DNA from: Candidatus Melainabacteria bacterium SSGW_16
Lineage (GTDB): Bacteria > Cyanobacteriota > Vampirovibrionia > 2-02-FULL-35-15
Direction of reading: 5' to 3'
Length of the DNA stretch: 64,000 nucleotides
NCBI GenBank assembly: GCA_004769085.1
Contig: DUDS01000015.1
Coordinates: 97,975 to 161,974 of the forward strand
Positions 5,777-39,600 of the stretch are shown in pieces. The translations under genes and the position numbers were made by a program. Under the pieces are notes generated by a model that was given only the letters and a program-made list of their open reading frames with translations, made no database searches and was not told where the DNA came from. Positions within the stretch are counted from its first letter, which is position 1. Every line of letters starts with the position of its first letter.

Positions 5777-8598
5777 ATTTTTGCTATTACCTTTAATTTA
5801 CCATTTTTGGACTCTTCAGAGGCACTCAATGATAATTTATTTTTTGAACTAAGCTTTATATAAAGAGCTAAAAGAAGAATAATTATTATTGCTAAAAGAC
5901 TAAATGAAGAGCCAATTAAAAACAATTTTGGATAATAATAAAATTCAATTTTATAATCTCCGACATCAGGAAGATACACAGTTCTCTGGACAAGATTTGC
6001 TTGATAATGCTTTGCCTCTTTATCATTAATCTTCACTTTCCAGTTAGTGTTTAAATTATTGCCAAGAACCAGAAATCCGGGGGAGAGAACCTTTGCATTT
6101 AAAATTATATTGTTTTGTTCGTATTTGAGAAACTTTATGTCATTCCCACGAAAGCGGGAATCCAGATCAGTATTGTTTGTAGCTTCCTCTGGATTCCCAG
6201 TCAAGCTGGGAATGACAGGAGGTTCCATCATCAAAATAACTTCTTTTCTTAAATTAAAATTATCACTTTCCAAAGCAAGAATTGTTCCTTTTGGAGATTC
6301 GATTACTTTGTATTCTGTGACAAAAAATGCTCTGGGAAAATAATTTTTATTTTCATAAATTGAACAATCACCACTAAAAACCTTTTCAGTGTCAGGCGAG
6401 TCCAATGTAAGAACATTTGGAACAAGAAAATACTTTACATTTAACAAATCAAGTATTTTACTCTTAAAATTAAATATTGGATATGGAATATTCGGATTTT
6501 TAAAAAAGTATGTGAGTTCTTTTGGATATAGTTTTGCCGGATCCAGACTCTGAATATAAACAAATAAATAATAAATATCCTTCGGAACAAAAGAGCTATA
6601 GCCGGAAACTTCTTCTAGTCCATAAGGAAGCAAGGTATTTGGCTGAGCTACATTAACTTTTAATGATGTTTCACCAACTTTATCTATAGCAAAAGGGAGT
6701 ACTCTGAAAAGGTCTTTTGATTTATTTTTCTGGTTAATCAGAAACTCAAGCGATCCTCCCTTAGGAACAGGCTTATAATCCTGTCTATCAGACCAGGTTA
6801 TAAAATAAGATGAGTAATAAATCAAATCTATTAATGAAATAATAAAAACCACAGAGAACAATATTGCCAATGTCTTCTTCTTGAAAAGAGATAACATGTC
6901 AAAAACAGCTTTTAGTCCAAATCCTGCAAGAAAAGGAACTGAATAACTAAAAAGCTGGAGAAATCTGAAATGCTGAAGTTGTTTAAACCCTGGAATAAAT
7001 TCCCTGAGGAAAAGGAAAATTGGTGAGCCTGTACAAATAATTAATGATATTAAAATGGTCAGATAAAAAAATAAAACTATTTTATATGACTTCAAGAATT
7101 TAATACTAAATAAAGAGACTATAAAAGGTAAAAATCCAAAATAAATATAATTATTAAAAAATCCAATCCTGTAATCAGGATTAATGTTTGGATTTCCAGC
7201 CTGAAATGCTTCAGGTAAGCCGCCGTAATATGGGTAAATTAATCCCAATAATCCCCATAGGGGGAATGAGGTTTCTTTTATATAACTCACAGAGTTTGCA
7301 ATTCTGTGAGAGTTCTGAAGAATTGGGAAAAACGGAATAATTACTGCCATCCCAATCATCAATCCAATAGAAGTCACAAAGAATATACCAAATAAATGTT
7401 TAAATATTCCAGCATCTTTTTCAAAGAAGCTAGATACTGCTTTAAAAGAAGCAAATAATAAAAAGAACACTGCACTGTAATAAACATACTGAAGATGCCC
7501 GGATATAAAAATTAATCCTAAAAGTAATGCAGAGAAGAGCAGGTATTTATTAATTAGTTTATTCTCAAGCAGATTTTTTTCATAAAAAAGGATTAAAAAC
7601 GGCAAAGTAGCACTATTCATTATCATGTGTTCATAACTAAACCATGTAACATTAAACGGCTGAAACATATAAACAAGAGCTGTAAGCAGCGAAGGATAAA
7701 ATCCTATATTCCAGAATCTTGCAAGTAAAAATGCTCCTATGCCACTTAGCAAAAAGCTCACAAACACCACAATTGCATGTGCTATAAAATGATCAAAAAC
7801 TAAATAGCTTAAAAAATAAAATGGGTGAAAATAGCCTACCTGTGGCTCTCCCAGGAATTCAGCACCTCCAAGTATGAAATTATTCCAGAAAGGAAGCCTG
7901 CCACTTTTTATAGAATTTGAAAAATATTCCCGAAAAGGAGTAAACATCTGAACAAGATCATTAATAAAAAAATTGTGTACCTTAACAGTGCCAGAATAAT
8001 CATCAAAACCAAAGTTTACATTTTTAAGCACTAATGAAGCTTCTTTTGAACCTTTATTTAAGGCTAATACCTGAATAAAAAATGAATCCAGATCATCTGG
8101 AGATTTAAGAGATTGTATAAAATTACTTAAATTAAAATAAGCCCTATGCCATGAACCATTCGCTGAAGAGAGTGGAGTTACTGCAACTCCAGGAGTAAAA
8201 GTGTAACCTGAAATTTTATTTATAAGTGACAATCCAAAATTAATTTTTTCACCTGAATCAGTTACAGGACTAAAATCAAATGTTATAAAATAATTTTGTT
8301 TCTTCATGACGTTAAAATTCTGAAGATATTTTTTATCAGTATTTAACTCAAGCAGAAGCTTGCTTGTATTATTTGGCTGAATTTTGAGAGTGTAAACACT
8401 GTTACTATCCTCTTTTGAGTGAGCATTCCACAAAATAACTGTCCGGACCTTTTTATCCACAGAATGATATCTCCAGGGATACATCAGGGAATCTCTTATA
8501 TCAATAGGAGTATCAATCTTCCCCAGGAAAAATGGGTGTAGATAAATAACTGCTATAAACAAAATAAAAAGAAACGCAATTTTTTCTAATGTTTTCAT
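5773..8598 (-). CDS. YfhO-like polytopic membrane protein, paralog 2, with an in-frame palindromic element
   Basis: Colinear with paralog 1 (GRLPFWNN, GHLQY, FPRAFFV, IEFYYYP); 4-bp overlap with paralog 1. Confidence 0.8.
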   Translation of the reverse strand: MKTLEKIAFLFILFIAVIYLHPFFLGKIDTPIDIRDSLMYPWRYHSVDKKVRTVILWNAHSKEDSNSVYTLKIQPNNTSKLLLELNTDKKYLQNFNVMKKQNYFITFDFSPVTDSGEKINFGLSLINKISGYTFTPGVAVTPLSSANGSWHRAYFNLSNFIQSLKSPDDLDSFFIQVLALNKGSKEASLVLKNVNFGFDDYSGTVKVHNFFINDLVQMFTPFREYFSNSIKSGRLPFWNNFILGGAEFLGEPQVGYFHPFYFLSYLVFDHFIAHAIVVFVSFLLSGIGAFLLARFWNIGFYPSLLTALVYMFQPFNVTWFSYEHMIMNSATLPFLILFYEKNLLENKLINKYLLFSALLLGLIFISGHLQYVYYSAVFFLLFASFKAVSSFFEKDAGIFKHLFGIFFVTSIGLMIGMAVIIPFFPILQNSHRIANSVSYIKETSFPLWGLLGLIYPYYGGLPEAFQAGNPNINPDYRIGFFNNYIYFGFLPFIVSLFSIKFLKSYKIVLFFYLTILISLIICTGSPIFLFLREFIPGFKQLQHFRFLQLFSYSVPFLAGFGLKAVFDMLSLFKKKTLAILFSVVFIISLIDLIYYSSYFITWSDRQDYKPVPKGGSLEFLINQKNKSKDLFRVLPFAIDKVGETSLKVNVAQPNTLLPYGLEEVSGYSSFVPKDIYYLFVYIQSLDPAKLYPKELTYFFKNPNIPYPIFNFKSKILDLLNVKYFLVPNVLTLDSPDTEKVFSGDCSIYENKNYFPRAFFVTEYKVIESPKGTILALESDNFNLRKEVILMMEPPVIPSLTGNPEEATNNTDLDSRFRGNDIKFLKYEQNNIILNAKVLSPGFLVLGNNLNTNWKVKINDKEAKHYQANLVQRTVYLPDVGDYKIEFYYYPKLFLIGSSFSLLAIIIILLLALYIKLSSKNKLSLSASEESKNGKLKVIAKI
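6138..6217. repeat. Inverted dimer of GTCATTCCC-type palindromic units (dRS3/RPE-like) inside YfhO paralog 2
   Basis: TGTCATTCCC-ACGAAAGC-GGGAATCCAG ... CTGGATTCCC-AGTCAAGCT-GGGAATGACA. 11-bp perfect terminal inverted repeat; the left arm matches ATTCCC-N8-GGGAAT. Confidence 0.9.
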
Positions 8599-8601: not shown

Positions 8602-11463
8602 TCAGACACTAATCTTAATTTTATCCGGTTCTTTATAGGATTTTCCATCTTTATAAGCTATAGAAATTTTATTTTTATATTTTAAAATCAATGCTAAGCA
8701 AATCAAGATAAAAATTGCAAAACAACTTATTCCAAATCCTATGAAAAATAGGATCGGATAATAATAAAATTCAATGCTATATTCCCCTGCTTGAGGTATA
8801 TAAACAGCCCTTTGAATCAAATTAGCCTGAAAATGTTTATTCTCTTTATGATTAATTTTTACTTTCCAATTATTGTTTAAGTTGTGCCCAAGCACAAGAA
8901 AACCACTCATGTCTACAGTCACTTTTAAAGTTATGTTTTCTGGTTCGTATTTGAGAAACTCTATGTCATTGCGAGAAGAGGCAAAGCCTCGACGTGGCAA
9001 TCTCATAACGTTATCAGATTGCTCCGTCGCTACTCTCCTCGCAATGACAGGAGGCTCTACCATTAAAATCACTTCATTTCTAGGATTAAAACTCTCACTA
9101 TCAAGTTCTACGATAGTCTCTTTAGAAGATTCAATCACTTTAAAAGTAGGTACAAAAAAAGCTCTTGGCAGATAGTTTTTATTCTCATATATTACACAGT
9201 CTCCACTAAATACTTTTTCTGTATCATTAGATTTAAGGGTTACTATATTTGGTACCAAAAAATATCTAATGTTTAATAAATCAAGTATCTTACTCTTAAA
9301 ATTATAAATTGGATAAGGAATATTAGTATTGTTAAAAAGTTTAATTATTTCTTTTGTATAAAGATTATTTGGATCCTTGGTTTGAACATAAACAAATAAA
9401 GAATAAATATCTTTCGAAATTAATGAACTATAACCTGATGCTTCTTCTAGGTTATACGGCTGTAAGGTGTTGGGCTCTGCAACTTTATATCCTATGTTAT
9501 GTACAGTAAATGGTAAGATTCTAAATAGCTTACTAGATTTCTTTTGTTGCCTGACTAAAAACTCTAATGCACTATCTTTATACAGAGGTTTATATTTCTT
9601 TTTGTCTGACCAGGTAACAAAATATGAAGAATAATACATAAGGTCAATTGTTGAAACTAAAACAACAATACTAACAATTAGCACTTTTATATTTTCTTTA
9701 AGAAAAGATACCAAATTTAAAAAAACTTGAAAGCCAATACCAGCTAAAAAAGGAACACAAAAACTATAAACCTCCAGGAACCTGTAATGCTGCAGTTGTT
9801 TAAAACCAGGCACAAAGTCTTTAATCATAAAAAACAGAGGAGAACCTACTGAAATTAACACAGAGAAAGTAATCGTTAGAAAGAAAAAAATTGTCAGTTT
9901 ATTTTTAAAAAGTACTTTTATACTAAAGAGTGAAAGTAAAAAAGGTAAAAGTCCAAAATAGACATAGTTTTTAAAAAATCCCCAGTTGATTATGGATTCA
10001 TCAAAATTTGGCCAAGCAGGATATCCTTTGTAATAAGGGAATAAGAGCCCCAAAAATGCTTCTATAGCTATTGAGCTATCTTTTATAGAGGCTTCAGAAT
10101 AAGCTACTCTATGGGAGCCCTGGAACAAAGTTAAAAAAGGAACTAAAACTATTGCTCCAATCATAATCGCTATAGAAGAAATAAATAAGGTACTAAAAAA
10201 GTGTTTTAAATAGTTTCGTCTCCAGATAAAAGCATCTATTGAAAATCTAAAAGCAACAAATAAGAAAAAGAATATAACCGTATAATAAACAATCTGCAAG
10301 TGACCAGATATAAAAATAAGTCCAAGCAACAAAGCTGAGAGCAATAAATATTTATTTATAATTTTTGATTCTTTTATACTTTTTTCATAGGCAATCAGCA
10401 CAAAGGGTAAAGTAGCACTATTCATTAACATATGTTCATAACTAAACCAAGTCACATTAAAAGGATGGAACATATAAACAATGCTTGTTAGTAATGAAGC
10501 TCCAAAACTTAATCCCCAAAATCTTGCTAACAAATATGCACCAATACCACATAACAAAAAACTAACAAAAGTTATAATTGAGTGTGCAGTAAAATGATCA
10601 AAAATTAAGTAGCATAGAAAATAAAAAGGATGAAAAAAACCTACTTGAGGTTCAGCAATGAATTCACCTCCCGTTAGGGTATGGTTGTTCCAAAAAGGTA
10701 ATTTAGCCTTTTTAATAGATTCAGAAAAGTACTCTCTTGCTGGAGTAAACCATTGAATTAAATCATTTATAAAATAATTATGAACTTTAGGGATTTCTGA
10801 AAAATCTTCACATACAATTCGTAAATCTTTTAAATACAATGAGGCTGCCTTGTTCTTATTTTTATTCTTTGCAATAAGTTGAATATTATATAAATTTAAA
10901 TCTTTTACAGAAATCACATTATTTAAAGGAATATAAGCGGTATGCCATGAGGTTATTTCGTCATTTTTTTCAACATTAGCTGGGTATACAACTATACTAG
11001 GATTTAAATATCCATTAGTAACTTTATTAACCAGTAAAATACCAATTTCAAAAGAAGGTGAATCATAACGAATAGGTTTAAAATTAAAGCTGAAGTAATA
11101 ACTCAGATCTTTTAAATTGCCTTGTTTACTTAGAAGAAGTTCATCCAGAGCAGGTGTAAACAAGGAACTTACTGTGCTCAATGAAGGAACTTGGATCTTA
11201 AGAACCTGCTCATTTATTTCTCTATCATTAACAGTTTTATTTTTAAAGGAATTATGTTCCCATAAAACGATTTTTTTTACTTTTTTATCCACATTGTAAT
11301 ACTTCCAAGGGTACATTTGGATATTACGGATATCAATTGGTGTATCCACCATGCCAAAAAAAATTGGATGCATATAAATAGTTGTAACTAATAAAATAAA
11401 TATGAAAGCAATTAGTTTGTCATTTAGAAGATTGAATTTTTTAATAAACAGCAAACTAAACAT
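8602..11463 (-). CDS. YfhO-like polytopic membrane protein, paralog 3, with a different in-frame palindromic element
   Basis: Colinear with paralogs 1 and 2 (KLPFWNN, GHLQI, LPRAFFV, IEFYYYP). Confidence 0.8.
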   Translation of the reverse strand: MFSLLFIKKFNLLNDKLIAFIFILLVTTIYMHPIFFGMVDTPIDIRNIQMYPWKYYNVDKKVKKIVLWEHNSFKNKTVNDREINEQVLKIQVPSLSTVSSLFTPALDELLLSKQGNLKDLSYYFSFNFKPIRYDSPSFEIGILLVNKVTNGYLNPSIVVYPANVEKNDEITSWHTAYIPLNNVISVKDLNLYNIQLIAKNKNKNKAASLYLKDLRIVCEDFSEIPKVHNYFINDLIQWFTPAREYFSESIKKAKLPFWNNHTLTGGEFIAEPQVGFFHPFYFLCYLIFDHFTAHSIITFVSFLLCGIGAYLLARFWGLSFGASLLTSIVYMFHPFNVTWFSYEHMLMNSATLPFVLIAYEKSIKESKIINKYLLLSALLLGLIFISGHLQIVYYTVIFFFLFVAFRFSIDAFIWRRNYLKHFFSTLFISSIAIMIGAIVLVPFLTLFQGSHRVAYSEASIKDSSIAIEAFLGLLFPYYKGYPAWPNFDESIINWGFFKNYVYFGLLPFLLSLFSIKVLFKNKLTIFFFLTITFSVLISVGSPLFFMIKDFVPGFKQLQHYRFLEVYSFCVPFLAGIGFQVFLNLVSFLKENIKVLIVSIVVLVSTIDLMYYSSYFVTWSDKKKYKPLYKDSALEFLVRQQKKSSKLFRILPFTVHNIGYKVAEPNTLQPYNLEEASGYSSLISKDIYSLFVYVQTKDPNNLYTKEIIKLFNNTNIPYPIYNFKSKILDLLNIRYFLVPNIVTLKSNDTEKVFSGDCVIYENKNYLPRAFFVPTFKVIESSKETIVELDSESFNPRNEVILMVEPPVIARRVATEQSDNVMRLPRRGFASSRNDIEFLKYEPENITLKVTVDMSGFLVLGHNLNNNWKVKINHKENKHFQANLIQRAVYIPQAGEYSIEFYYYPILFFIGFGISCFAIFILICLALILKYKNKISIAYKDGKSYKEPDKIKISV
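8964..9049. repeat. Inverted dimer of GTCATTGCGAG-type palindromic units (REP/RPE-like) inside YfhO paralog 3
   Basis: 12-bp perfect terminal IR TGTCATTGCGAG (8964-8975) / CTCGCAATGACA (9038-9049); inner IR GCAATCT/AGATTGC; internal hairpin GAGGC-AAA-GCCTC. Confidence 0.9.
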
Positions 11464-12106
11464 ATTTTAAATATTCAGGATATACCCCCAAGTTTTTGTC
11501 AAATATATTTTGTTTATCTACAAATACTGAAAATTCAAAAGGCATATAATCATTTCTAAGTACAATCCTATTTGAATATTTATATGCTAGGTCCAACACT
11601 TTTAAAGGATCTGAGTAATAAATATCTTCTTTTGTAAAGTCAACTTTGTTTGAAATAAAGTTAATAGCAAAACCATGTGTTGAGTACCTGTCAAACAAAT
11701 TAAAACTTTCTTTTATATAACTCCAGTTATCCTTTAACTTAAAGTTATGTACACCTGAAGAAAGAATATAATTAAACTCCTTGTCAATTTTTTCTGAAAA
11801 AATGTCCTTTACTTCAAGGAATGCACTCGGATATCTTTTCTTTCCCTCAATAATCAAATTTTTATTAATATCAATTCCATGGTAAACAAAATTTATTCCT
11901 TTTTCTTTTGCATAACCATACATGTCTCCAAAACCACAGCCATAATCAAGAACAGTTTTGCCATTTAAATCCCAGTGGCTAAGGAGAACATGATATCTCA
12001 GCCTATGTGTTTTTTTGTCCCAACCAAGGGTTTTTGGACTATAGCCAAAGGTTTTGTACCTTTCATTGTATGATTCAAGAATATTTGTTAAATCATTTTT
12101 TTTCAT
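11456..12106 (-). CDS. Class I SAM-dependent methyltransferase
   Basis: VLDYGCGFG, YHGIDIN; YGYSPKTLGW-like N-terminus of glycan-cluster methyltransferases. Confidence 0.85.
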   Translation of the reverse strand: MKKNDLTNILESYNERYKTFGYSPKTLGWDKKTHRLRYHVLLSHWDLNGKTVLDYGCGFGDMYGYAKEKGINFVYHGIDINKNLIIEGKKRYPSAFLEVKDIFSEKIDKEFNYILSSGVHNFKLKDNWSYIKESFNLFDRYSTHGFAINFISNKVDFTKEDIYYSDPLKVLDLAYKYSNRIVLRNDYMPFEFSVFVDKQNIFDKNLGVYPEYLKYV

Positions 12107-12890
12107 TTAATAAACCTTTCTTAATTCCTAAAAATTCTAAAAGGTTTTTATAAAAGATATTTTCAAGTTTAATTTGTGATATGCCTAAAGAAAGTTCTTT
12201 TACCCGTTCCACTAAATCTTTATGAGAATATGATGGGTGATCCGTACCAATACAAATACGCCTGTCAAATTGTTCGAATAAAAATTTAAGATCAAGATCA
12301 ATAGAGCTTCCTTTGTATTTTAAAATAGTAAAAGACAAATCAAGCAAAAGATTCTGATTATGTCTTACAAACTCAGCATATTGCAATAATCTTACATCTC
12401 CTCCATGCAGTAAAACAACTTTAGCTTCAGGTGATGAACTTAAAAGGTTTACCAGTGAAATAAAAGGATCATTATAATTTCCATTTGTAATCTTTCTATG
12501 CATGTAGCTACAAAGTAAGATAACTAAACCTTTTTTTGAAGCCAGGTCTAATATAACTGGCAAAGTTTTATATCCCCAGTCAATCCCAGCCAAACGCGGA
12601 TGAATCTTAATGCCCTTAAATCCTAATTCTTTAATGTGATCAATTTCTTTTTCCAGAGCTTTTTCATCTGTTTTTGGATCAATACCTGCAATTGGAATAA
12701 AACAGTCATGCTTTAAGCACTCTTTTATAAATAACTCATGATTATAACCATTTTCACCTGCAAGACCTACCGCCAGAGCCCATTTAAATCCGTAAGCTGA
12801 CATTTGATTCTTAACAACATCAAAACTAGTATCGATGTCAGCAGAATGATTGTTTACTGTGGGGTGAGTAAGTGAATCAAAAAAGAGCAT
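12093..12890 (-). CDS. Amidohydrolase-family (Amidohydro_2-like) metal-dependent hydrolase
   Basis: DSLTHP, GFKGIKIHP, VVLLHGG, ICIGTDHP motifs. Confidence 0.8.
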   Translation of the reverse strand: MLFFDSLTHPTVNNHSADIDTSFDVVKNQMSAYGFKWALAVGLAGENGYNHELFIKECLKHDCFIPIAGIDPKTDEKALEKEIDHIKELGFKGIKIHPRLAGIDWGYKTLPVILDLASKKGLVILLCSYMHRKITNGNYNDPFISLVNLLSSSPEAKVVLLHGGDVRLLQYAEFVRHNQNLLLDLSFTILKYKGSSIDLDLKFLFEQFDRRICIGTDHPSYSHKDLVERVKELSLGISQIKLENIFYKNLLEFLGIKKGLLNEKK

Positions 12891-13809
12891 TACAGTTTAA
12901 CCTTGCTAGTCCTAAGCCTTCTTTTCCAAAATCATTGCCATTATAAAACATATAGAGATAGTTCTTGTACTGTAACACATGAGCATAGCAAATAGACTTT
13001 GAATCCCAACCATGGTCAGACACATCAATACCTGCATTTTCATCTTTTCTTTCCCACTTTATGCCATCACTAGATGTTGCATATCCTATCCTGTACTGTT
13101 CACCTCTGTATGAATACCACATGTGATATTTATCCTTAATTTTTAAAACGCAGGGTTTTCCTATTGCATATTCATTTTGATTTTTAAAATCAATACAAAT
13201 AATATTATTTCTAATCCAGTGAATACCATCTTTAGACTCTGCATATTTAATTACATAGTAATGTTTATGCTCACCTGAGCCTTTGCCCCACTTCAAAAGA
13301 GAGGTGTACCACATTTTCCAAGTATTTCCTTCGACTAAAACACAAGCTGAACCAATCCATAGATAGTCTTCATTATTTCTTTCTAAAATTGGTGCTTTCG
13401 ACACACGTTCAAAAGTTCCATCACTTTTTAACACTGCTAACCCAAGATGATTTTGGAATGGTGTAAGTACAGTTGGCATCCACCCTACATAGTACATAAA
13501 AGTTTTTCCATTATGCTGTACAAGCCACGGATAAGATACTCCATTTTCATCAAATGCTCCTAGTTCTCCTAACTGGAAAATCGGCTTTGCAGTGATCTCT
13601 ATTATTTCAGTAGGATTTTCTATATTAAGTTTTATCCTGCCGATAGTTGATCTATTCAATGAATCTCTACCTGTTACATAAACATCAAAGAAGGGTCCTT
13701 TAGTTTGAAGAGCAAAAGAAGCTCCAGTATAAGTACTTATCCAAGGAATACTTGCATCCGGCTTAAAAAGCCTTCCTAGTTTTTCCCATGTGCATAGTGT
13801 ACTAATCAT
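12877..13809 (-). CDS. Five-bladed beta-propeller glycoside hydrolase/phosphorylase-like protein (GH32/43/130-like)
   Basis: Repeated blades GAFDENGVSYPW, MYYVG, KYAESKDGIHW, GYATSSDGIKW, MFYNGNDFG. Confidence 0.7.
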   Translation of the reverse strand: MISTLCTWEKLGRLFKPDASIPWISTYTGASFALQTKGPFFDVYVTGRDSLNRSTIGRIKLNIENPTEIIEITAKPIFQLGELGAFDENGVSYPWLVQHNGKTFMYYVGWMPTVLTPFQNHLGLAVLKSDGTFERVSKAPILERNNEDYLWIGSACVLVEGNTWKMWYTSLLKWGKGSGEHKHYYVIKYAESKDGIHWIRNNIICIDFKNQNEYAIGKPCVLKIKDKYHMWYSYRGEQYRIGYATSSDGIKWERKDENAGIDVSDHGWDSKSICYAHVLQYKNYLYMFYNGNDFGKEGLGLARLNCNALF

Positions 13810-13833: not shown

Positions 13834-15987
13834 CTAAGCAAAGACAGGTTCTTTGCTAGATTTATTAGAAGCCTTTCTTTCATGTTTAATAGGTAATTTA
13901 GAATAAGCATCAAGAAATTCTTCAATTTGCTTGCGGTTTTCCCAACAGGCATTTGCAAGCTTTTCAACGAATTCAAATGATGGTTGCTGGCAATTATCAC
14001 CGGTTATGTAAATTGCAGTTGGTCCATCCAATTGTTCAAACTGAATATCATCAAGCGGCGCAGAAATATATTTAACAATACTTTCTTCTTTTTCGGTTTT
14101 CATTTTGTCTAGCAAGTCACTATCTGTCCAATCAAGAAGCAAGAGCATATTTTTTGCAAAATTGTACATATTAGAGCCCTCTTCATATGCTTCCTGCAAG
14201 AAGCTTCTCATAGCTTGAGTTTTAGTACTATAGCCTGCAAATTCAAGAAAAATATCCTTATTGAAACCTAATAGCTTTAGTACATAAGCAATTTCAACTA
14301 TTGAAAGTGTTCCTGTATCCAGTCTGGATAAGAGGTAACCAGCCATTGCACTTGCACCAGCTGGTTCTGGCTTCCGTGCATGGCGCATCACTCCTCTAAT
14401 TATGCTTTCAGTTGGCTTTTTTGTTTTGTCAAACCACCGGCTTAGATAGCGGAATATATCTTCACCAAAGATTAATGCCTGAGCAAAAGGGTTTACAGTA
14501 TGGGTAGAAACGTGAAATGCTTCTTTGCCTACAAAAGCTCCTCCACTTGTTAAGCTGTCCTTTAATATTTCAAAACAGCGGTTTCCATTACCATAAGAGC
14601 TAGATCCCAACCCTACATATGCTGTTCCCCTGCCAGAAGAATGATTTTCTACTACCACTCCAAGCAACTGGGCTAGAGACTGTAAGTTAGAAAGATCAAA
14701 TACTCCATGAATACGTGTTTTCAGGTCACGTCCCAGTTTGTTTGAATCCAAAAATTTACTAATTTCCGGGAACAGGCTATTCAACTCACTTCTTACACTA
14801 TCCTCCAGCTTCATTGGTTCGCGCAAAATATCATCTGCCAAAGCAATAGCTGCAAGAGCTGCACCAATCGATGCCTGGTTCCAGGTGGAAAGAGTTTTTC
14901 CCATATTGTTTTTAAGGAATTCTTCAAGCAAAATAAGGTAAGGCACCATAAGACCATAGATTCCGCTTTCCACTCCATGCTCAATAATGACTTTTCCGTC
15001 TTTGACATATGCACCAATACTTTCAAGAGCATGATGTATATTTTCATCTGTCAGAATCTCTACCAGGGGTACTTTCTTTTCTTTTTCAATCATTTTTAAG
15101 GCTATAAAAATGAGATTCTGCATTTCATCTTTAGATTGTGGATTAGTTGGGAAAAAATATCCTCCAGTAAGAAGAGCATCAGACAATGCTCCTGGATCCC
15201 GCTGCTGACGGTTTATATATGTGCGGAGCTTGGTAATTTGAGGCTCTTCCTTTTCCAGTTCTCGTAAAAAGAAAGTTTTCTCCTTGTTCATAAAATCAGC
15301 CCGTTCATCCGGACACCAGATAACAAGACTTCCTTCATTTTGATTCATCAAAGTGAATTCTTTACCTTTAAATTCTAATTTCTTACCTTGCATAAGCCTG
15401 AGAACTTGATGACAAGAAATTCCCATATTTGAGGAAGTAGAACAATATATAGTTCTCTTACCAAAACATGACCAAATCGCAACAGCTTCATCGTTTATCT
15501 GAAGCAGCTCGGATGCTTCAATGTTTTTTAGCTCATTAGGGGTGAATATCTTCTCCCCTGTATTGGTTTCCCTTGATTTAAGGAAATCTAGTTTCAAGTT
15601 ATTAAGGTCACTAGTCGAGAGCTTTTTCATTCTCTCTACTTCAAGTAAAATCTGCTCTGCCATTAAACCCAGAGCATTAAAGCCTTTCACACAACTTTCA
15701 AAGTGTTTCCAGCCTCGCAGGTAGATAATTTTTTTATTAACCAGAGCTGTGCTAAGTGGAGCTTTAAATGTTAGTGAATCGCTGCCAGTGCTGTATGGAA
15801 GTTCATCATCTTTAGTCTGACCTGGAAGCATAATACCTAACTGCATAGCCAGCCGTACTGTAGAAAGGCAAATTTGCATACTAGAGGAATTATTGTACTC
15901 TCCTCCTGGTGCAACCTTTACGGTTTCTTCTTCCAAAAAGTCTCCTGATAACTCTGGTATCTCCTTATGTAAATAGGTAAGTTTCAT
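13834..15987 (-). CDS. Highly divergent, expanded fold-type II PLP-dependent enzyme (threonine dehydratase/cysteine synthase superfamily)
   Basis: Family motifs in the expected order: IYLRGWKHFESCVKG (K101), CSTSSNMGIS, VIWCP..EK..LREL, ASIGAALAA, RIHGV, EPAGASAMAG, IYITGDN. About twice the usual length. Confidence 0.6.
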   Translation of the reverse strand: MKLTYLHKEIPELSGDFLEEETVKVAPGGEYNNSSSMQICLSTVRLAMQLGIMLPGQTKDDELPYSTGSDSLTFKAPLSTALVNKKIIYLRGWKHFESCVKGFNALGLMAEQILLEVERMKKLSTSDLNNLKLDFLKSRETNTGEKIFTPNELKNIEASELLQINDEAVAIWSCFGKRTIYCSTSSNMGISCHQVLRLMQGKKLEFKGKEFTLMNQNEGSLVIWCPDERADFMNKEKTFFLRELEKEEPQITKLRTYINRQQRDPGALSDALLTGGYFFPTNPQSKDEMQNLIFIALKMIEKEKKVPLVEILTDENIHHALESIGAYVKDGKVIIEHGVESGIYGLMVPYLILLEEFLKNNMGKTLSTWNQASIGAALAAIALADDILREPMKLEDSVRSELNSLFPEISKFLDSNKLGRDLKTRIHGVFDLSNLQSLAQLLGVVVENHSSGRGTAYVGLGSSSYGNGNRCFEILKDSLTSGGAFVGKEAFHVSTHTVNPFAQALIFGEDIFRYLSRWFDKTKKPTESIIRGVMRHARKPEPAGASAMAGYLLSRLDTGTLSIVEIAYVLKLLGFNKDIFLEFAGYSTKTQAMRSFLQEAYEEGSNMYNFAKNMLLLLDWTDSDLLDKMKTEKEESIVKYISAPLDDIQFEQLDGPTAIYITGDNCQQPSFEFVEKLANACWENRKQIEEFLDAYSKLPIKHERKASNKSSKEPVFA

Positions 15988-17321
15988 TAACTATGCTGAC
16001 TGACAGCTAAACTCCTTTCAAAATATTCTACCTGAACAAAAGACTCTATCATTTTTTCTTTTCTCAATACATCATCCCGATCATTTCCGCATACGATGAA
16101 ATATCCTGGTCTGTCACGGCTATCTTTTACAGGGTTTATATTGTCACCTTCTTTGAGATCAAGGTTAAAGACAAGCACATTGCTGGCAAGGTTCTTATCT
16201 ATATATGTCTTCTTTACTTTTCCAGGTGGAAAGTTAAAAAATTTGAGTACTGCATATTTCTTTTTGTAATCTTGAATCTTCACTTCAAATGGTTGCCCGG
16301 TTAATGTTTTTAAAAGTGCTTTCAATGGATCAAATCCTGTAAGAAATGGAATAATATGACTGCTTATACTTCCTCCTGCACCCCTTGCTGCAATCTCCAT
16401 TAGATAAATATTCCCATCTTTTACTTTGTATTCAGCATGTGTGTTACCAAAAGGTAGTCCCAAAGTTTTGATCACCTTTGTGTTAACATCAAAAATCTTT
16501 TTCTCAAGCAATAGATCGATATCTCCCAGAAAGGTGTTTCTCTCATCCAAACAAGGATTAGTATTGTAGTGGTACTTTTTAGTGAGGGTAATGTTGTAGA
16601 CTTTTTCATCTTTCACAAAAGATTCAACAGAAAACTCAAATCCAGAAATGTACTTTTCAATAATAATTCCCCGGCCTATGCTCTCTCTGAATGCAGTTGC
16701 TAACATTTGTTTGTACCTGTGATCCAGAATAGTAACCCCTTTACTCCCCTGAGAATTAATAGGCTTTACAACATACTCTGAGAGTTCAGACAGTCCTTTG
16801 CAGAAATTTTCTGCTTCGCGCTCATTATCAAAATAATGGGATTCCGGGATATGCTCATCCAATTTACCTTTCAGTGCGCTGCGCATGACATACTTATTAG
16901 TAAATTTCAAGGCTGTATTGTAACCAATTCCTACTAAGTTTAGCTTTTCAGCTATGAATGCAACAGTAGGGACAGCAACATCTGTTTGATCCGTTGTAAT
17001 GTAATCTATCTTATATTTTTCAGCACATGAAAGTGTTGCCTGTTTGTTAGTGGTATCAATTTGCTCATAATAGTCAGCATATTCCTTACAAGGAGGATTA
17101 ACATTCATGTCAGTAACCAAAACGCAGTAGCCCATTTGCTTTGCTTTTTGAACTAGTGGTATTTGGTTAAAACCGCCACCCACAATGTGGATTAATTTTT
17201 TATGCTCAAGACAAGCTTGAGCTTCCGTATGTCGATCTTTTTCGACAGATCGGATTTGCCCATCTTTTATATAAAATTGGGGGACAAATCCTTTACTTGT
17301 GAACTGATCTTCTTCTGTCAT
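15987..17321 (-). CDS. ATP-grasp carboxylate-amine ligase
   Basis: IVGGGFNQ, TNKYVMR, VVKPINSQGSKGV, IEKYISGFEFSVE, HAEYK, MEIAARGAG, V..SRDRPGY. TAATG coupling to the PLP gene. Confidence 0.88.
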   Translation of the reverse strand: MTEEDQFTSKGFVPQFYIKDGQIRSVEKDRHTEAQACLEHKKLIHIVGGGFNQIPLVQKAKQMGYCVLVTDMNVNPPCKEYADYYEQIDTTNKQATLSCAEKYKIDYITTDQTDVAVPTVAFIAEKLNLVGIGYNTALKFTNKYVMRSALKGKLDEHIPESHYFDNEREAENFCKGLSELSEYVVKPINSQGSKGVTILDHRYKQMLATAFRESIGRGIIIEKYISGFEFSVESFVKDEKVYNITLTKKYHYNTNPCLDERNTFLGDIDLLLEKKIFDVNTKVIKTLGLPFGNTHAEYKVKDGNIYLMEIAARGAGGSISSHIIPFLTGFDPLKALLKTLTGQPFEVKIQDYKKKYAVLKFFNFPPGKVKKTYIDKNLASNVLVFNLDLKEGDNINPVKDSRDRPGYFIVCGNDRDDVLRKEKMIESFVQVEYFERSLAVSQHS

Positions 17322-17361: not shown

Positions 17362-18153
17362 TTATACTACTTTATATAAGGTATCCATTTCAAGATCAAC
17401 TGCATCTCTTATTTGAGCATTATCAAAAAGTTTATTTATAGCAAAGAGTAATGTCCAGCGCCCTTCAAAAGATAGCCAATTTGGTTTACATTCGGGGTCA
17501 ATAGTATCTACACCATGAGGTAACATTGCATTAAAATAAACAACATCCCCCACGTCTGCAAAGTCTTCAAGTAATATTTTCTTACCATCCTTAGTTTCTA
17601 CAAATACTCCACCGTTTTTAAAATCGACCCCTTTTTTAGACATTTGTAGTATTGGAGCAGTAAGCTGATGATGATCTATTGGATCAGAATGTTTGTGCAT
17701 ACCTCCAATTCCTTTTGGATAAAATTGAAAGGCAATTCTTGCAATGCAATTATCCTCAGGCTCAATCCCTAGAAATTTATTTTTTTGATTACCACTAATA
17801 AGATTTCTAACCTGATAAACTTTTTTAAAAACCTCAAAAAAGTTAAATACATCCTGGTTCCATGGGAAAAAGACAAATTGATGAAAACAAGCTTGAACAT
17901 ATGAACGCTTATCCCAAAGATTTATCCTGTGAAAATTTAGACACCCTTCTTCAATTTTTTTGTAGTTTGGAAGCGAGTTTCTACCTATGTTTGTTAGATA
18001 TAACTTGATCTGAACTATAAAGTCTTTTTCAGCTACATTTTTAATAATATAAATACCACCTGCTTCTATCCTCGTTCGCATTAGAGAAACAAGAGATGGA
18101 TCGTTTAAAAGTTCATCATGGCTTTCTAGATAATAAATATTCTCTTGATTCAT
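17362..18153 (-). CDS. Fe(II)/2-oxoglutarate-dependent oxygenase-like protein
   Basis: HSD...PHGVD...GRW facial triad and Arg pattern, GGVFV, GDVVYFNA. ATG at 18153 preferred over the GTG at 18183. Confidence 0.65.
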   Translation of the reverse strand: MNQENIYYLESHDELLNDPSLVSLMRTRIEAGGIYIIKNVAEKDFIVQIKLYLTNIGRNSLPNYKKIEEGCLNFHRINLWDKRSYVQACFHQFVFFPWNQDVFNFFEVFKKVYQVRNLISGNQKNKFLGIEPEDNCIARIAFQFYPKGIGGMHKHSDPIDHHQLTAPILQMSKKGVDFKNGGVFVETKDGKKILLEDFADVGDVVYFNAMLPHGVDTIDPECKPNWLSFEGRWTLLFAINKLFDNAQIRDAVDLEMDTLYKVV

Positions 18154-19099
18154 TTTTTTCTTCCTCACATTTTTCTTCTTCACAATTTAATGTCTCATCT
18201 ATTATATATAAAGGCCTGCCTTTTGCTTGTTCAAGAATTTTCCCAATATAAATACCAAGGATACCAATTGAAACTAATATAATGCCAGTTGTAAAAAGAA
18301 TTAAAACCATAAGAGAAGTCCAGCCTTCTTTAAAGCCTTTTATAAAATACATTACAACAAGCAATACTGAAAACAACATTGATAAAAATGAAAAGCTAAG
18401 CCCTACAGAAATTGATAGACGCAACAACTTATCAGATTGAGAAACAATGCCATCAATAGCATGCTCCCACAATTTTAAAAACGAATAAGAACTATTTCCG
18501 CTAAACCGGGGATTTTGAATTACATCTATATAACAATGCTTGAATCCAAGCCATCTTAAAAGTAAAAGATAGTGACGCTGAGTGTCTTTTATTTTACAAA
18601 AAGCATTAACAACTTTCCTGGATAAAATTGAAAAGCTTATTACGTTTTTACCTATATAATTACAATCACTAAACAAATTGAGAACTACCTTAAATAAATA
18701 TGAGTAAAAGTTTCTTAAGAAGGAATGTGTCTTATTTTGTACTCTGGTATAAACAATTTCATAACCCTCTCTAATCTTTTCATATAATTTTGGTATATAA
18801 CTAGGATCATCTTGAAGGTCACAATCAATTACAATTACATAATCTCCCTTTGAAGTTTCTAAACCAGCAGTTATTGCATGTTGCTGCCCGAAGTTATTAC
18901 TTAATTTAATTCCTTTAATTCTCTTGTCCTTACCACAATTTTCTTTTATCTTAGTCCACGAACTATCAGGACTACAGTCATCAATTAATATAATTTCAAA
19001 ATCTTCCGTTATTTGTGAAACTGCTTTAGTAATCCTACTTACAAGTTCATCAACTATATCTTCTGCTTTATAAACTGGACTTATTACACTAAGCTGCAT
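18116..19099 (-). CDS. GT2 glycosyltransferase, ArnC/GtrB-like (polyprenol-phosphate sugar loading)
   Basis: IDDCSPD, LSNNFGQQHAI.AGL, IDCDLQDDP, two C-terminal TM helices, IYIGKI...KGRPLYII. Confidence 0.88.
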   Translation of the reverse strand: MQLSVISPVYKAEDIVDELVSRITKAVSQITEDFEIILIDDCSPDSSWTKIKENCGKDKRIKGIKLSNNFGQQHAITAGLETSKGDYVIVIDCDLQDDPSYIPKLYEKIREGYEIVYTRVQNKTHSFLRNFYSYLFKVVLNLFSDCNYIGKNVISFSILSRKVVNAFCKIKDTQRHYLLLLRWLGFKHCYIDVIQNPRFSGNSSYSFLKLWEHAIDGIVSQSDKLLRLSISVGLSFSFLSMLFSVLLVVMYFIKGFKEGWTSLMVLILFTTGIILVSIGILGIYIGKILEQAKGRPLYIIDETLNCEEEKCEEEKNESREYLLSRKP

Positions 19100-19197: not shown

Positions 19198-19995
19198 ATG
19201 ACAACTATACGATTTGAAGAAATAATGGACGAGCTAAACATTGTCCTAGGTGATGTACTCTTTGTTCACAGTTCTTGGAATAGACTTAAATTCCTTGGCT
19301 TAAGCCCGCATGAAGTTATTGAAAAGTTAAAAGCAAGAGTTGGACAAAAAGGTTTACTATGTATGCCAACTTATCCGTGGATTCATCCAGATATACCATT
19401 TAATCCAAAGAAATCTTTCTCTATTATTAACACCCCATCAGAAGTAGGCTACCTAAGTGAAACCTTTAGAAATTATCCAGATGTTTATCGAAGTGCAAAT
19501 CCTCTTTTCCCTGTAGCAGCTTGGGGAAACAAGGCTTGTGATTTGGTTTCTGGACAAGAAAACGCAAAGGATTTATTTGGCGACGAATCGGTCTTTGTCC
19601 AACTTATAAAGCTTAAAGTTAAGCAACTGGGACTTGGAGTAAGTGTTGGACTCTCAACTTTCATACATATGGCAGACTGGAGATTGCGTCACTTACTTGA
19701 TTTTAGAGTTAGTGAAGAAGTAAAGGTCTCTATTAAATTGAAAGATCGTTTCTTAAGTGATGTGCCTTTTCTTGTTATTCCAGAAACTGTCTTTAAGGTT
19801 ATTAATTCAGCACTACTATTTCACAAGAGAAAAGATCTCATGGATCGGGTTATTTTTAAAACCGTTGAAGGAAATTTTCTTTATTCTTATTGCATACAAG
19901 ATATGCTTGAAGTGGCATTTGAAGAGGCTGAAAATGCTCTTCGTGCTAAGACTTTTCCTTGCTGGTATCACAAGCAACCAATTGATAAGCCTTAA
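19198..19995 (+). CDS. AAC(3)/Antibiotic_NAT-family N-acetyltransferase
   Basis: VLFVHSS, LCMPTY, TPSEVGYLSETFR, RSANP..VAAWG, LGLGV, TFIHMAD motifs. Confidence 0.8.
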   Translation: MTTIRFEEIMDELNIVLGDVLFVHSSWNRLKFLGLSPHEVIEKLKARVGQKGLLCMPTYPWIHPDIPFNPKKSFSIINTPSEVGYLSETFRNYPDVYRSANPLFPVAAWGNKACDLVSGQENAKDLFGDESVFVQLIKLKVKQLGLGVSVGLSTFIHMADWRLRHLLDFRVSEEVKVSIKLKDRFLSDVPFLVIPETVFKVINSALLFHKRKDLMDRVIFKTVEGNFLYSYCIQDMLEVAFEEAENALRAKTFPCWYHKQPIDKP

Positions 19996-21105: not shown

Positions 21106-23271
21106 ATGGACATACAAAAATATCTTTTACTACTTATCTTTTTTTTCATTGTAACTAGCTTTGGCTACGCATTCACAAAAAGAATATTAAAGGAAAACAG
21201 AATAATTTGTTTGATTCCTCTTTCAATTTGTTTTGGATCGTCTTTTTTTGTAATCCTGTTACATTTACTTTCGCTTATTTTTGGTATTAAACTATCAACC
21301 TATATAAGTTTGTTTTTAATTTTTGTTGGGACATTATTTATTTTATTGAAGTATAAAACAACAACCAAGTTAGTGCTTAACTTGTCAGTCTTTCAATTTA
21401 TTCTACTTTCTCTATTTTCATGCATTGTTGCAGCTTTAACTTTTTGGCACCTTATTATTTTTGGCACTTATGATCCCCTCTATCAAAGTATAGAAGTCAT
21501 GATAAAAAACTCATATCCTCCTCATCACCCTTATAATTCAGAAATGATAGTTAGTTATCATTTTGGTGTCATTTTGTATGCTTGTGCATTAAGAGTATTT
21601 TCCAGTATAGATGTATGGAATAGTTTTATCCCTATCCAAACAATATTTGCATTTGTTACACCTTTTACTATTTTTTGTTTGCTTTTTTCCTCAACAAAAA
21701 ACTACATACAGTCTTTTATTGGTTCAGTAATCGGTTGCTTTTGTGCAAACTTAACATCCTTTAAGCTATTAATGCTCCTTCCTCAAGTCAACAATTATGA
21801 CTTTTTTAGTAATGCACACAAAACACTAGTAACAATGAATGAAAGTGGATTTGCTATAAGTACAAGCAAAGCTCTTGTTTCTCCTAATTTGTCTGTTGCA
21901 ATACCACTTTCAATATTGTTATTTTATTTATGTACTAGAGAGAATGCAAATGGTAAAAGATACTGTTCTGTAATTCTATTTGTTACAGCTTTTTTGTTTT
22001 TTAGCTATGAGTCCTTTTACGTGCCAGTTTTAATTTCTGTTTTTCTATATTACTTTTTCTTTTTTATTCTAAGCAAAGATAAGCCAAAGCAACTAATTAC
22101 ATCAATTCTAATAATAGCTTCACTTCTTTTGGGTCCTTTTTTAGTTGGCAGTGTTTTTGTTAATAATGTTAGAGGCATATCAAATCTTTTATATTTCCAT
22201 CCAAAACTTTATACTTACTCTTGGTCTGGCATACTGAATCAGTTTTATCCCAATGAGTGGTTTGGTAAAAATATGGTTTTATCTAACGGTGATGGGTGTC
22301 AGTTTTATAAGATTCCACTTCTATCAAAGTATTTTTTTGTTGAACTGGGGCTACCATTTATTATTTTACCTATTATAATGATCTGGCTTTTCTTTAAAAA
22401 GAATTTGATTCTGATTTTCTTTTTCTTAAGTGGATTAATTTCATTTATGTTCCCTTTTTTAATTAGCTACTTACCAAGAGAGATAGAAGTCTTGCGATTC
22501 TTCATTTATGCAAGGTATATTTTTTCTATTTTATTTGGGGCTTTTTTAGGCTGGTCGCTGACTGTTAAATTGCCTTATTTAGTTACAAATACTTACCGTT
22601 TGATTTTAATTATTGTTATTTTTCTCCAAATACTTCCAGGAATTGTTTGGTTTATACCTAGAAAAATAGCAGAATATGATTATAGGTATAGTCAAATACC
22701 CAACCTTGATAAAAAAGCCCTAAGCTGGCTGAGTAAAAAAGTTAAGCCTGGTGATAGAGGATTAGGCCCAACAAATATACCCCACGCACAGTTTGAATTA
22801 ATTAATATTGCAAGTGTTTTTGGAATAACAGGAGATCCCAAAGTTTTATTTGCAAGTGAAACAAGAAAAACTGCTTTAACCACACTAAACCCATGCTTAC
22901 TAAAAGAGCTAAAAGTCAGATGGATTTTTTTAAATAATGATTTGTTAACAGTAGTGCCAAAAGAAATGATTGAGAATCTAAAAAATGAAAAACTTTTGTT
23001 TCTTCGTTATAAGTGTAAAGATGATAAAGACACAAAAAAGATATATGAGTTTATTCCTAAAAATGTCGATAGGTACTGTACGAATAAAACATATGAGTGG
23101 GTTTTAGGAAGGATGTATGATGGTAAGTTTATACAGCTAATTGATTCTGACTCAATGTTAAAGATTGCATTTAATGATAAAGAGATTGCTCTAAATACAT
23201 TAGAACAATTAAAAAAACGCTTAGATCCTAAAGAAGCATACTGGTATAGAGTAGAAGCAATAAAAATATAA
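21106..23271 (+). CDS. Polytopic membrane protein, putative GT-C glycosyltransferase
   Basis: Many TM segments; extracytoplasmic loop GTYDPLY...YPPHHPY...SYHFG; soluble C-terminal domain with ALSWL. Confidence 0.55.
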   Translation: MDIQKYLLLLIFFFIVTSFGYAFTKRILKENRIICLIPLSICFGSSFFVILLHLLSLIFGIKLSTYISLFLIFVGTLFILLKYKTTTKLVLNLSVFQFILLSLFSCIVAALTFWHLIIFGTYDPLYQSIEVMIKNSYPPHHPYNSEMIVSYHFGVILYACALRVFSSIDVWNSFIPIQTIFAFVTPFTIFCLLFSSTKNYIQSFIGSVIGCFCANLTSFKLLMLLPQVNNYDFFSNAHKTLVTMNESGFAISTSKALVSPNLSVAIPLSILLFYLCTRENANGKRYCSVILFVTAFLFFSYESFYVPVLISVFLYYFFFFILSKDKPKQLITSILIIASLLLGPFLVGSVFVNNVRGISNLLYFHPKLYTYSWSGILNQFYPNEWFGKNMVLSNGDGCQFYKIPLLSKYFFVELGLPFIILPIIMIWLFFKKNLILIFFFLSGLISFMFPFLISYLPREIEVLRFFIYARYIFSILFGAFLGWSLTVKLPYLVTNTYRLILIIVIFLQILPGIVWFIPRKIAEYDYRYSQIPNLDKKALSWLSKKVKPGDRGLGPTNIPHAQFELINIASVFGITGDPKVLFASETRKTALTTLNPCLLKELKVRWIFLNNDLLTVVPKEMIENLKNEKLLFLRYKCKDDKDTKKIYEFIPKNVDRYCTNKTYEWVLGRMYDGKFIQLIDSDSMLKIAFNDKEIALNTLEQLKKRLDPKEAYWYRVEAIKI

Positions 23272-38877: not shown

Positions 38878-38885
38878 AACTTAAA

Positions 38886-39599: not shown

Positions 39600-39600
39600 T

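Follow-up and report, generated by a model that had tools for sequence, protein, structure and literature searches.

The subject of this analysis is a gene on the minus strand of a 64,000-nucleotide stretch of DNA (the window) from Candidatus Melainabacteria bacterium SSGW_16 (assembly GCA_004769085.1, contig DUDS01000015.1, positions 97,975 to 161,974 of the forward strand), which encodes a protein of 717 amino acids and whose family is here called F0. By its predicted fold, F0 is most aptly regarded as a new family, so far unrecognised, of the tryptophan-synthase-beta-like superfamily of pyridoxal 5'-phosphate (PLP) enzymes, since the fold fits this superfamily while the Pfam definition of the PALP family fails. 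The gene is genetically tied, in some cases as a fusion, to one or other of two unrelated ligases that activate carboxylates, and it resides in amino-sugar or nonulosonic-acid clusters. As to the chemistry, our tentative preference is a PLP-dependent beta-eliminating enzyme making the acid that its ligase attaches to a glycan.

Predicted fold and candidate active site

The open reading frame (ORF) was confirmed with an ATG start, and its product is indeed about double the normal size, as had been proposed from the letters alone: the six canonical PALP proteins of the same genome measure 323–465 amino acids. From an alignment of 30 F0 sequences from different phyla (A1; mean column identity 50%, more than 100 invariant columns) an AlphaFold2 model was built, which reached a mean predicted local distance difference test (pLDDT) score of 86.6 and a predicted template modelling (pTM) score of 0.89; its low-confidence segments are residues 1–4, 11–19, 453–468 and 700–717. 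The model has the two-domain alpha/beta fold of the superfamily. Comparison by VIA-align with 48,161 representative chains gave the T. thermophilus threonine deaminase 1ve5 as the best match (Z 20.9, root-mean-square deviation (rmsd) 3.1 Å, 301/308 residues aligned, model residues 35–670), and every chain of ranks 1 to 33 (Z from 20.9 down to 10.8) has the fold-type II PLP fold, after which Z falls to 6.2 at rank 34. Thirty-two of these 33 chains are named, namely threonine deaminases, racemases, diaminopropionate (DAP) ammonia-lyase, threonine synthases, CBS, OASS, SbnA, CmnB, TrpB and ACC deaminases, the remaining one being an unnamed Campylobacter jejuni protein (9jqf). Foldseek against the Protein Data Bank (PDB) likewise listed almost exclusively fold-type II PLP enzymes. 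In a second VIA-align look over its 987 best chains the top 27 entries were threonine deaminases or serine/aspartate racemases (Z 18.9–21.8); DAP ammonia-lyase and serine dehydratases reached Z ~18–19, and OASS, CBS and SbnA Z ~17–18. In this model the core of F0 belongs to the deaminase/racemase branch of the fold-type II PLP fold, an assignment made because of the VIA-align Z scores and not because of sequence methods or Foldseek. The fold suspected by the sequence-only reading is thereby borne out (Z 20–22 over ~300 residues), and on the model the motif likeness of F0 to PLP enzymes is more than chance.

About 300 of the 717 residues form the core. The remainder (~350–400 residues, mostly helical) is distributed over some five highly conserved insertions, which, with boundaries inferred from secondary structure, lie at roughly 120–175, 203–215, 300–335, parts of 375–540 and 556–655.

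The best structural matches, threonine deaminases and serine dehydratases (IlvA, TdcB; 1ve5, 1tdj, 9jfi, 2gn0; Z 20–21.8 over ~300–314 residues, rmsd 3.1–4.5), would share with F0 the order in which a Lys helix and a Ser/Asn loop are followed by the Gly loop, the EPxGA helix and the TGxN strand. Their identity to F0 is, however, 13–17%; F0 has no Pfam PALP match, ~400 extra residues and no ACT regulatory domain, reads STSSNMG for SxGNHG and GVE[GS]G for GGGG, and is encoded with ligases in glycan clusters, whereas threonine deaminases serve in Ile biosynthesis or Thr catabolism. Serine/aspartate racemases (3l6c, 5cvc, 5ybw, 1v71; Z 19–21) are level with the deaminases as matches and differ from F0 in the same respects. 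SbnA, CmnB and DAP ammonia-lyase (5d84, 8if7, 4d9g) have the same fold with lower scores than the deaminases (Z 15–18). F0 is outside the threonine deaminase, serine racemase, OASS and SbnA families.

The 717-residue protein matched no Pfam family at E ≤0.1 and no NCBIfam family, and fell short of the gathering score of PALP (PF00291), for which the same genome, as positive control, yielded six matches (E 3e-83 to 2e-42). A phmmer search of the PDB returned nothing below E 0.05, the best hit being a restriction enzyme (E 0.053); a 30-sequence profile did no better (nothing below E 0.05), and ESM Atlas searches with F0 gave no usable match. Sequence intermediates that match PALP were also sought, and none of 20 unfused distant F0 relatives matches it in Pfam. 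Relatives are numerous: a word-indexed search found at least 202 (clusters at 90% identity) at E ≤1e-3 among 8000 scored candidates, the 120 listed ranging from 100% down to 44% identity over ~90–100% of the length, and an exhaustive search among representatives at 50% identity yielded 91 (40 of them at E ≤1e-30), many being fragments. As had been anticipated of standard pipelines, these relatives carry the label hypothetical protein wherever they are named. In the window's own class F0 is sporadic, occurring in 4 of the 151 genomes searched (G000 included).

The motif strings on which the PLP relationship had been proposed are all present in the order and at the positions given, including VIWCP (222–226), YFFPTNP (277–283), SIGAA (373–377), TRIHGV (424–429) and YVGLG (457–461); others are located in Table 1. 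Conservation was counted over 149 aligned relatives of at least 550 amino acids (out of 208 proteins), and for mapping A1 was aligned by hhalign to the six canonical PALP proteins of the same genome (A2). The candidate PLP Schiff-base lysine, K101, lies in IYLRGWKHFESCVKG (residues 88–102, by string check). It is invariant in A1, Lys in 144 of the 149 relatives (four gaps and one Glu in the others) and the only invariant Lys in its region; in the model it opens helix 101–121, ten residues after strand 87–91, and the helix-strand-helix-strand order before it matches the PALP enzymes of the same genome one for one, spacing included. By the model, the conserved lysine would stand at the canonical position.

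The hhalign comparison was weak overall (probability 19.8%, E 1.2e-3), with collinear pieces. It paired RTIYCSTSSNMGIS with KILLAGSTGNHGQS (the asparagine loop; STSSNMGIS against GSTGNHGQS), LVIWCPDE...EK with VVIVCPEN...VK and PEPAGASAMAGYL with AEGAGAASLAGLL; furthermore, it paired IYITGDN with VLTGGN at low probability and HGVESGIYG with AVGGGSGICG in a low-confidence extension only. Block-wise, the EPxGA block alone was recovered (PEPAGASAMAGYL region, probability 58%, E 9.8e-5) and the Gly-loop block was not; in global mode the alignment collapsed to 5 columns. A custom profile-profile dynamic programming with cheap gaps scored ~3.2–3.4 standard deviations above 60 column shuffles but gave inconsistent alignments, in which K101 was matched to a Lys that is not catalytic and the position of the Gly loop changed between the two gap settings, and was not used for mapping.

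The Ser/Asn loop and the EPxGA helix, both expected from the motifs, are accordingly aligned with canonical PALP proteins. The loop follows the third core strand like the canonical Ser/Thr-x-Gly-Asn asparagine loop, with S185 in 145 of 149 relatives and N (129) or S (16) at position 187. In the EPxGA helix, which faces the PLP pyridine nitrogen in canonical enzymes, E541 occurs in 149/149 and A543 in 148/149 relatives, and the canonical members of the same genome also have Ala at the third position of the motif. T662 and G663 of IYITGDN are found in 148/149.

One assignment of the sequence-only reading, SIGAA as a remodelled phosphate loop, is probably mistaken. WNQASIGAA (Q371 in 148/149, S373 and G375 each in 147/149) lies on strand 365–371 and the start of helix 375–389, following the Gly loop at a distance of 24 residues, as the VEp strand does in canonical enzymes. 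GVESGIYG (338–345), by contrast, lies in the model where strand 332–335 leads through a loop into helix 341–359, and has conserved glycines at 338, 342 (144/149) and 345 (147/149); because of this strand-loop-helix order, its spacing and the hhalign extension it is probably the equivalent of the GGGG phosphate loop, which, as 338–345 keeps its conserved glycines, would not have been remodelled away. Residues 453–468 (GRGTAYVGLGSSSYGN) have pLDDT <50 yet contain G459 in 149/149 relatives and the nearly invariant G461, S462, S464 and Y465, and are a possible active-site lid. The motif set is retained in altered form in a distant F0 branch (25–33% identity; e.g. P0155, P0163, P0165), as GAIKG, PTSGSFG, PTNPKS, G.YGL, NQPS[VI]GAT, NGLGT, YPE.AGAASLAG and TG.NGT.

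Linkage to ligases in glycan loci

A scan with one genome per species gave 42 related loci in many groups, with carriers in Melainabacteria, Gammaproteobacteria, Nitrospira, Bacteroidota, Planctomycetota, Bdellovibrionota, Verrucomicrobiota, Elusimicrobiota, Patescibacteria, Acidobacteriota, Myxococcota, Rhodospirillaceae and Actinomycetota; one verrucomicrobial carrier, Brevifollis gellanilyticus NBRC 108608, is cultured, its homologue being encoded at L016:7986-10241. Neighbouring ORFs were picked crudely (longest non-overlapping, at least 110 amino acids) and clustered by BLASTP, and one representative per cluster was named by Pfam/NCBIfam. Of the resulting 43 places (42 loci and the window) the 40 with an F0 ORF were counted; L030 and L032, where a longer opposite-strand ORF displaced F0, and L049, which has a 133-residue match only, were dropped.

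A ligase neighbour is present in 35 of these 40 loci. Fourteen have an ATP-grasp enzyme of the window's family, 21 an AMP-binding enzyme (FadD-like) and none both; in L019, L025, L040 and L046 the AMP-binding ligase is fused to F0. Among the five with neither, L027, L043 and L047 end at or inside the gene and L048 has an opposite-strand ORF where its close relatives have the ligase; L021, with no ligase within 8 kb, is a true absence. Fusions of F0 with an AMP-binding enzyme, F0 being N-terminal (P0066 is an example), make up 13 of the 120 listed relatives and all five relatives longer than 1255 amino acids. In the window the stop codon of the ATP-grasp ORF upstream and the start of the F0 gene share one base, within TAATG. 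The functional coupling to a ligase that had been read from this overlap is thus supported by neighbourhood and fusion alike, and F0 very probably works in one pathway with the ligase.

Some F0 proteins carry other extensions: P0158, P0173 and P0180 (843–902 amino acids) and the F0 ORF of L045 (906 amino acids; L045:6678-8720 region) contain ~150–200 extra residues, which have no Pfam match and are not AMP-binding.

When 37 F0 domains were placed in a quick IQ-TREE tree, the AMP-type rows formed one clade (SH-aLRT 98), composed of the 21 AMP rows, L048 and the long-branched L045, and the ATP-grasp-type rows make up the remaining lineages. The ligase type tracks the tree, none of 500 shuffles being as clustered. 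Since the F0 tree cuts across organismal phyla, these sequences indicate that the cassette was transferred between lineages.

The two locus types have different further neighbours. With the ATP-grasp ligase are found Amidohydrolase_2 (F4; 13/14 loci, often directly after the PLP-like gene), a GH130-like protein (F7; 11/14), a GT2 glycosyltransferase (F10; 8/14), a methyltransferase (F15; 8/14) and F14 (260 amino acids; 8/14), as well as DegT and formyltransferase genes and, in three loci and one AMP-type locus, a class I/II aminotransferase. Five of the 14 encode a Rid-family protein of 145–155 amino acids (70 bits against the RidA model cut-off of 106), whose gene is flanked by the ATP-grasp gene and the PLP-like gene; in L012, L013, L035 and L038 it lies immediately upstream of F0, and in L014 it is nearby. 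The protein retains the Arg of the P-x-R-T-T-V/I-E-V motif, and this Arg marks active imine deaminases. A Rid-family neighbour of a deaminase gene is also known from tdcB-tdcF, a feature that these F0 loci share.

AMP-type loci hold a glutamate-dehydrogenase (GDH)-like gene in 16 cases, directly upstream of F0 in 13, its product belonging to the ELFV (Glu/Leu/Phe/Val) dehydrogenase family. NeuB occurs in 11, together with other nonulosonic-acid genes (CMP-transferase, PseB-like dehydratase, DegT, GNAT and PIG-L deacetylase), and there are a VOC/glyoxalase-like protein, a hexapeptide sugar N-acyltransferase, an arylformamidase-like cyclase and a methyltransferase. Elusimicrobia loci combine the AMP-binding enzyme with a PP-binding carrier protein and F0. 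An acyltransferase of the Antibiotic_NAT family (F1) is found in both locus types and beside the cassette of the window; Asn-synthase genes occur in some loci.

A distant relative of 1640 amino acids, P0165, which is apparently the same protein as the L050 ORF (L050:3896-8839, plus; identical Pfam scores; lengths 1640–1648 amino acids), has its F0-like domain ahead of the central, FMN and GXGXG domains of glutamate synthase, presumably at the N-terminal position where GltB has its glutaminase domain. L050 has ThiC, a CRP regulator, OmpW and a P-type ATPase as neighbours and no glycan genes. Neither a region search, which returned P0165 only, nor a metagenome scan (three loci, L050 among them) found a further glutamate-synthase fusion, so that it is a single instance.

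Proposed reaction and competing explanations

Likely, though with slightly less assurance than the shared pathway, F0 binds PLP. That F0 and its ligase install an amino-acid-derived acyl group on a surface sugar we regard as probable on balance. The type of reaction is a more tentative matter. In the scheme that we favour, K101 would hold PLP as an internal aldimine and the STSSN loop would bind an alpha-amino acid with a leaving group at C-beta (Ser/Thr-like), a beta-substituted substrate perhaps being produced by the neighbouring Fe(II)/2-oxoglutarate (2OG) oxygenase. Removal of the beta-substituent would release an enamine/imine and hence a 2-oxo acid and ammonia, and the product could be used directly, or an aminotransferase, a GDH-like enzyme or housekeeping enzymes could first put an amino group back on it. 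It would then be activated by the co-translated ATP-grasp ligase, or in other lineages by the AMP-binding ligase, and coupled as an amide to an amino sugar or to a nonulosonic-acid precursor, and the GT2 transferase and membrane proteins of the operon would carry the decorated sugar to the cell surface.

Beta-elimination is favoured because the nearest structures are deaminases, because the Rid, aminotransferase, GDH-like and glutamate-synthase partners handle enamine/imine, 2-oxo-acid and ammonia products, and because the Fe/2OG oxygenase of the cassette could install the beta-leaving group. Several points weigh against this explanation as a whole. Foldseek gave no PDB match at E ≤1e-3, its best E being a marginal 1.2e-3, and the K101 block was not recovered by block-wise hhalign. 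Genes of the Rid, aminotransferase and GDH-like types are absent from the cassette of the window. The Ser/Asn loop reads T-S-S-N in the window protein and P-T-S-G-S-F-G in its distant relatives; it looks nearer to P-T-S-G-N-T-G, the motif of the beta-replacement enzymes OASS and CBS, than to the dehydratases. A simple dehydratase has no obvious need for ~400 extra conserved residues, which might rather serve, for example, to accommodate a bulky substrate (tethered or linked to a nucleotide), to contact the ligase or to form a channel. Finally, the open-access full-text literature yielded nothing relevant on the F0 family or its gene combination.

For the pathway as a whole the nearest analogy with a documented ATP-grasp step is amidation of the C. 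jejuni capsule. There the PLP enzymes Cj1436 and Cj1437, which are of fold-type I, supply the capsule amine. The C-terminal ATP-grasp domain of Cj1438 forms an amide on glucuronate (PMC11800379), and the references of that paper include work on two PLP-dependent enzymes of this capsule pathway. The C. jejuni ATP-grasp enzyme is TupA-like, whereas the partner of F0 is L-amino-acid-ligase-like.

Among the alternatives the strongest, unlikely yet to be taken seriously, is a beta-replacement synthase, in which a nucleophile (amine, ammonia or thiol) would capture the PLP-aminoacrylate to give a non-proteinogenic amino acid that the ligase then couples, such as a 2,3-diaminopropionate-type compound formed together with the GDH-like partner, after SbnA/SbnB or CmnB. 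The SbnA/SbnB and dapdiamide logic is that of a PLP enzyme, a dehydrogenase and ATP-dependent ligases feeding on unusual amino acids; F0 loci likewise join PLP enzyme, dehydrogenase and ligase, and the dehydrogenase gene directly upstream in 13 loci parallels this arrangement. The resemblance of the Ser/Asn loop and the distant-branch PTSGSFG to the OASS/CBS motif speaks for such a synthase, as do the alignment of SbnA, CmnB, AMA synthase, CapA1/2, OASS and CBS at Z 15–18, the L-amino-acid-ligase-like ATP-grasp partner with its weak DdaF match and the Asn-synthase genes. The structure scores, however, favour the deaminase/racemase branch by 2–4 Z units, and the Rid-family neighbours better suit released enamines. 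Furthermore, SbnA and CmnB pair with an NAD dehydrogenase of the ornithine-cyclodeaminase (OCD) family (SbnB/CmnK type), whereas the dehydrogenase of the F0 loci is an ELFV enzyme in a glycan rather than a siderophore or antibiotic context, and no OCD-family protein was found among the 27 neighbour-family representatives scanned.

The same structure scores leave room for a racemase or epimerase like the serine/aspartate racemases of the fold, which would supply a D-amino acid for the ligase to put on the glycan; we consider this rather unlikely. These racemases are level with the threonine deaminases at the top (Z 20–21), and racemases of this fold are also known to leak aminoacrylate, a side reaction that would account for the Rid neighbours. 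D-Ala is handled by the ATP-grasp enzyme Ddl or by the AMP-binding DltA with its carrier, and the Elusimicrobia loci pair an AMP-binding enzyme, a PP-binding carrier and F0; the AMP-binding partners, however, best match FadD-type acyl-CoA ligases; the 25 best matches listed do not include DltA.

Improbable, in our estimate, is an F0 that acts after the ligase: Ser, Thr or another amino acid would first be tethered through its carboxyl group to an amino sugar, CoA or carrier protein, and the PLP enzyme would edit the tethered aminoacyl group, e.g. by beta-elimination to a 2-oxoacyl amide, with the insertions binding the nucleotide-sugar or carrier. Such an order would account for the ~400 extra residues with the invariant R260, R263 and D264, for the tight coupling and fusion to ligases and for the carrier proteins in some loci. 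Against this, the Ser/Asn carboxylate-binding loop is conserved as though it bound a free alpha-carboxylate, and the PLP-like part comes first in the fusions.

The fusions also bear on an even less probable reading, an ammonia-donor module that replaces glutaminase domains, in which F0 would deaminate an amino acid and channel NH3 to its partner (ATP-grasp or adenylating ligase, GDH-like enzyme or glutamate-synthase core), the insertions serving as interface and tunnel. All recurrent partner classes are enzyme types able to use free ammonia, the fusions follow the donor-synthetase order known from asparagine synthetase, and the F0-like domain of P0165 occupies the glutaminase position of GltB. 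However, the glutamate-synthase fusion is a single case, cells normally use glutamine for ammonia supply, and it is simpler to take the product of F0 as the substrate of its partner.

A cofactor-less or non-catalytic descendant (a ligase scaffold or regulatory subunit, at the extreme only coincidental motifs) would be consistent with the lack of a PALP match in any sequence library, the marginal Foldseek E and the K101 region left unaligned by hhalign, but is very improbable given Z 20–22 over ~300 residues and PLP-chemistry residues that, unlike those of a decayed pseudoenzyme, are nearly invariant across phyla at 45–50% overall identity.

The cassette in the window and the meaning of the family

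The PLP-like gene lies in a same-strand run of mostly overlapping ORFs from ~19099 down to 2921 (Table 1), in a low-GC region (~0.29–0.39) rich in glycan genes, which include a nucleotidyltransferase, a 4,6-dehydratase, GT2 and GT4 transferases, carbamoyltransferases, a DegT aminotransferase, a formyltransferase, WbqC and many methyltransferases. The ATP-grasp ligase matches 4dim (E 4.4e-21) and the L-amino acid ligase 3vot (E 3e-14) in the PDB, and weakly the dapdiamide synthase DdaF. The F14 protein, which matches nothing in Pfam or NCBIfam, is by its predicted fold an Fe(II)/2OG dioxygenase: its AlphaFold2 model (pLDDT 87.2) retrieved AndA with Foldseek (E 1.1e-7), as well as OkaE, IPNS and FtmOx1, and the triad H165-x-D167...H223 and R242 are invariant.

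Table 1. Features of the F0 protein and of its gene cassette, with positions in the window
Feature	Positions	Strand	Description and basis
PLP-like gene, family F0	13834..15987	minus	717 amino acids, ATG start; divergent fold-type II PLP-like enzyme (ORF call, AlphaFold2 model, VIA-align)
Codon of K101	15685..15687	minus	Candidate Schiff-base Lys; conservation and helix position
STSSNMGIS, residues 183–191	15415..15441	minus	Substrate-carboxylate (asparagine) loop; hhalign and conservation
GVESGIYG, residues 338–345	14953..14976	minus	Probable phosphate-binding Gly-rich loop; secondary structure, hhalign extension, conservation
WNQASIGAA, residues 369–377	14857..14883	minus	Family-specific invariant block; conservation and secondary structure
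Residues 453–468	14584..14631	minus	Invariant low-confidence loop, possible active-site lid; pLDDT and conservation
EPAGASAMAG, residues 541–550	14338..14367	minus	Helix; block-wise hhalign and conservation
IYITGDN, residues 659–665	13993..14013	minus	Last core strand and loop; low-probability hhalign and conservation
ATP-grasp ligase	15987..17321	minus	L-amino-acid-ligase-like, translationally coupled to the PLP-like gene; Pfam ATP-grasp_4, ATP-grasp_3, LAL_C2
Fe(II)/2OG dioxygenase-fold protein, family F14	17362..18183	minus	273 amino acids; AlphaFold2 and Foldseek
GT2 glycosyltransferase, family F10	18116..19099	minus	C-terminal membrane segment; Pfam Glycos_transf_2 E 1.5e-27
GH130-like beta-propeller protein, family F7	12877..13809	minus	Pfam Glyco_hydro_130 E 1.5e-6
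Amidohydrolase_2, family F4	12093..12890	minus	Metal-dependent hydrolase/decarboxylase-like; Pfam PF04909 E 6e-9
Methyltransferase, family F15	11456..12106	minus	S-adenosylmethionine-dependent; Pfam Methyltransf_25/31
Antibiotic_NAT-family N-acyltransferase, family F1	19198..19995	plus	Divergently oriented; Pfam PF02522 E 3.1e-29

Directly after the cassette, on the same strand, follow three tandem ORFs of ~950 amino acids without Pfam match (2921-5776, 5773-8598 and 8602-11463, all minus), at least two of which are paralogues by BLAST clustering; the one that was read is rich in hydrophobic stretches. A hydrophobic ORF of 721 amino acids lies nearby (21106-23271, plus). These ORFs may be membrane glycosyltransferases or polymerases that use the product of the cassette.

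Further features of the glycan region are a second amino-sugar cassette (38194-44225, minus) with formyltransferase, WbqC, GT2, methyltransferases, a PhyH-family dioxygenase and a DegT aminotransferase, and two carbamoyltransferase genes of the NodU/CmcH type (24945-26699, plus; 32071-33894, minus), a pair that suggests O-carbamoylated sugars. The region also holds two genes for AbiEii-family nucleotidyltransferase toxins of type IV toxin-antitoxin systems (37334-38125 and 46542-47315, both plus), each adjoining a small ORF without Pfam match.

F0 is related, at double the usual size, to one of the most thoroughly studied enzyme folds and is a widespread family of proteins annotated as hypothetical (at least 202 clusters at 90% identity, 91 representatives at 50%), invisible to Pfam, NCBIfam and PDB sequence searches. 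It probably makes an unusual N-acyl or aminoacyl decoration of bacterial surface antigens, because it is genetically bound to carboxylate-activating ligases inside nonulosonic-acid and amino-sugar clusters; to our knowledge, the genes for most such decorations have yet to be named. Naming the F0 family would therefore improve the annotation of many glycan loci. For PLP enzymology it provides an extreme case of insertion-tolerant fold evolution, and the cultured, non-pathogenic carrier Brevifollis gellanilyticus offers a tractable route to its chemistry.

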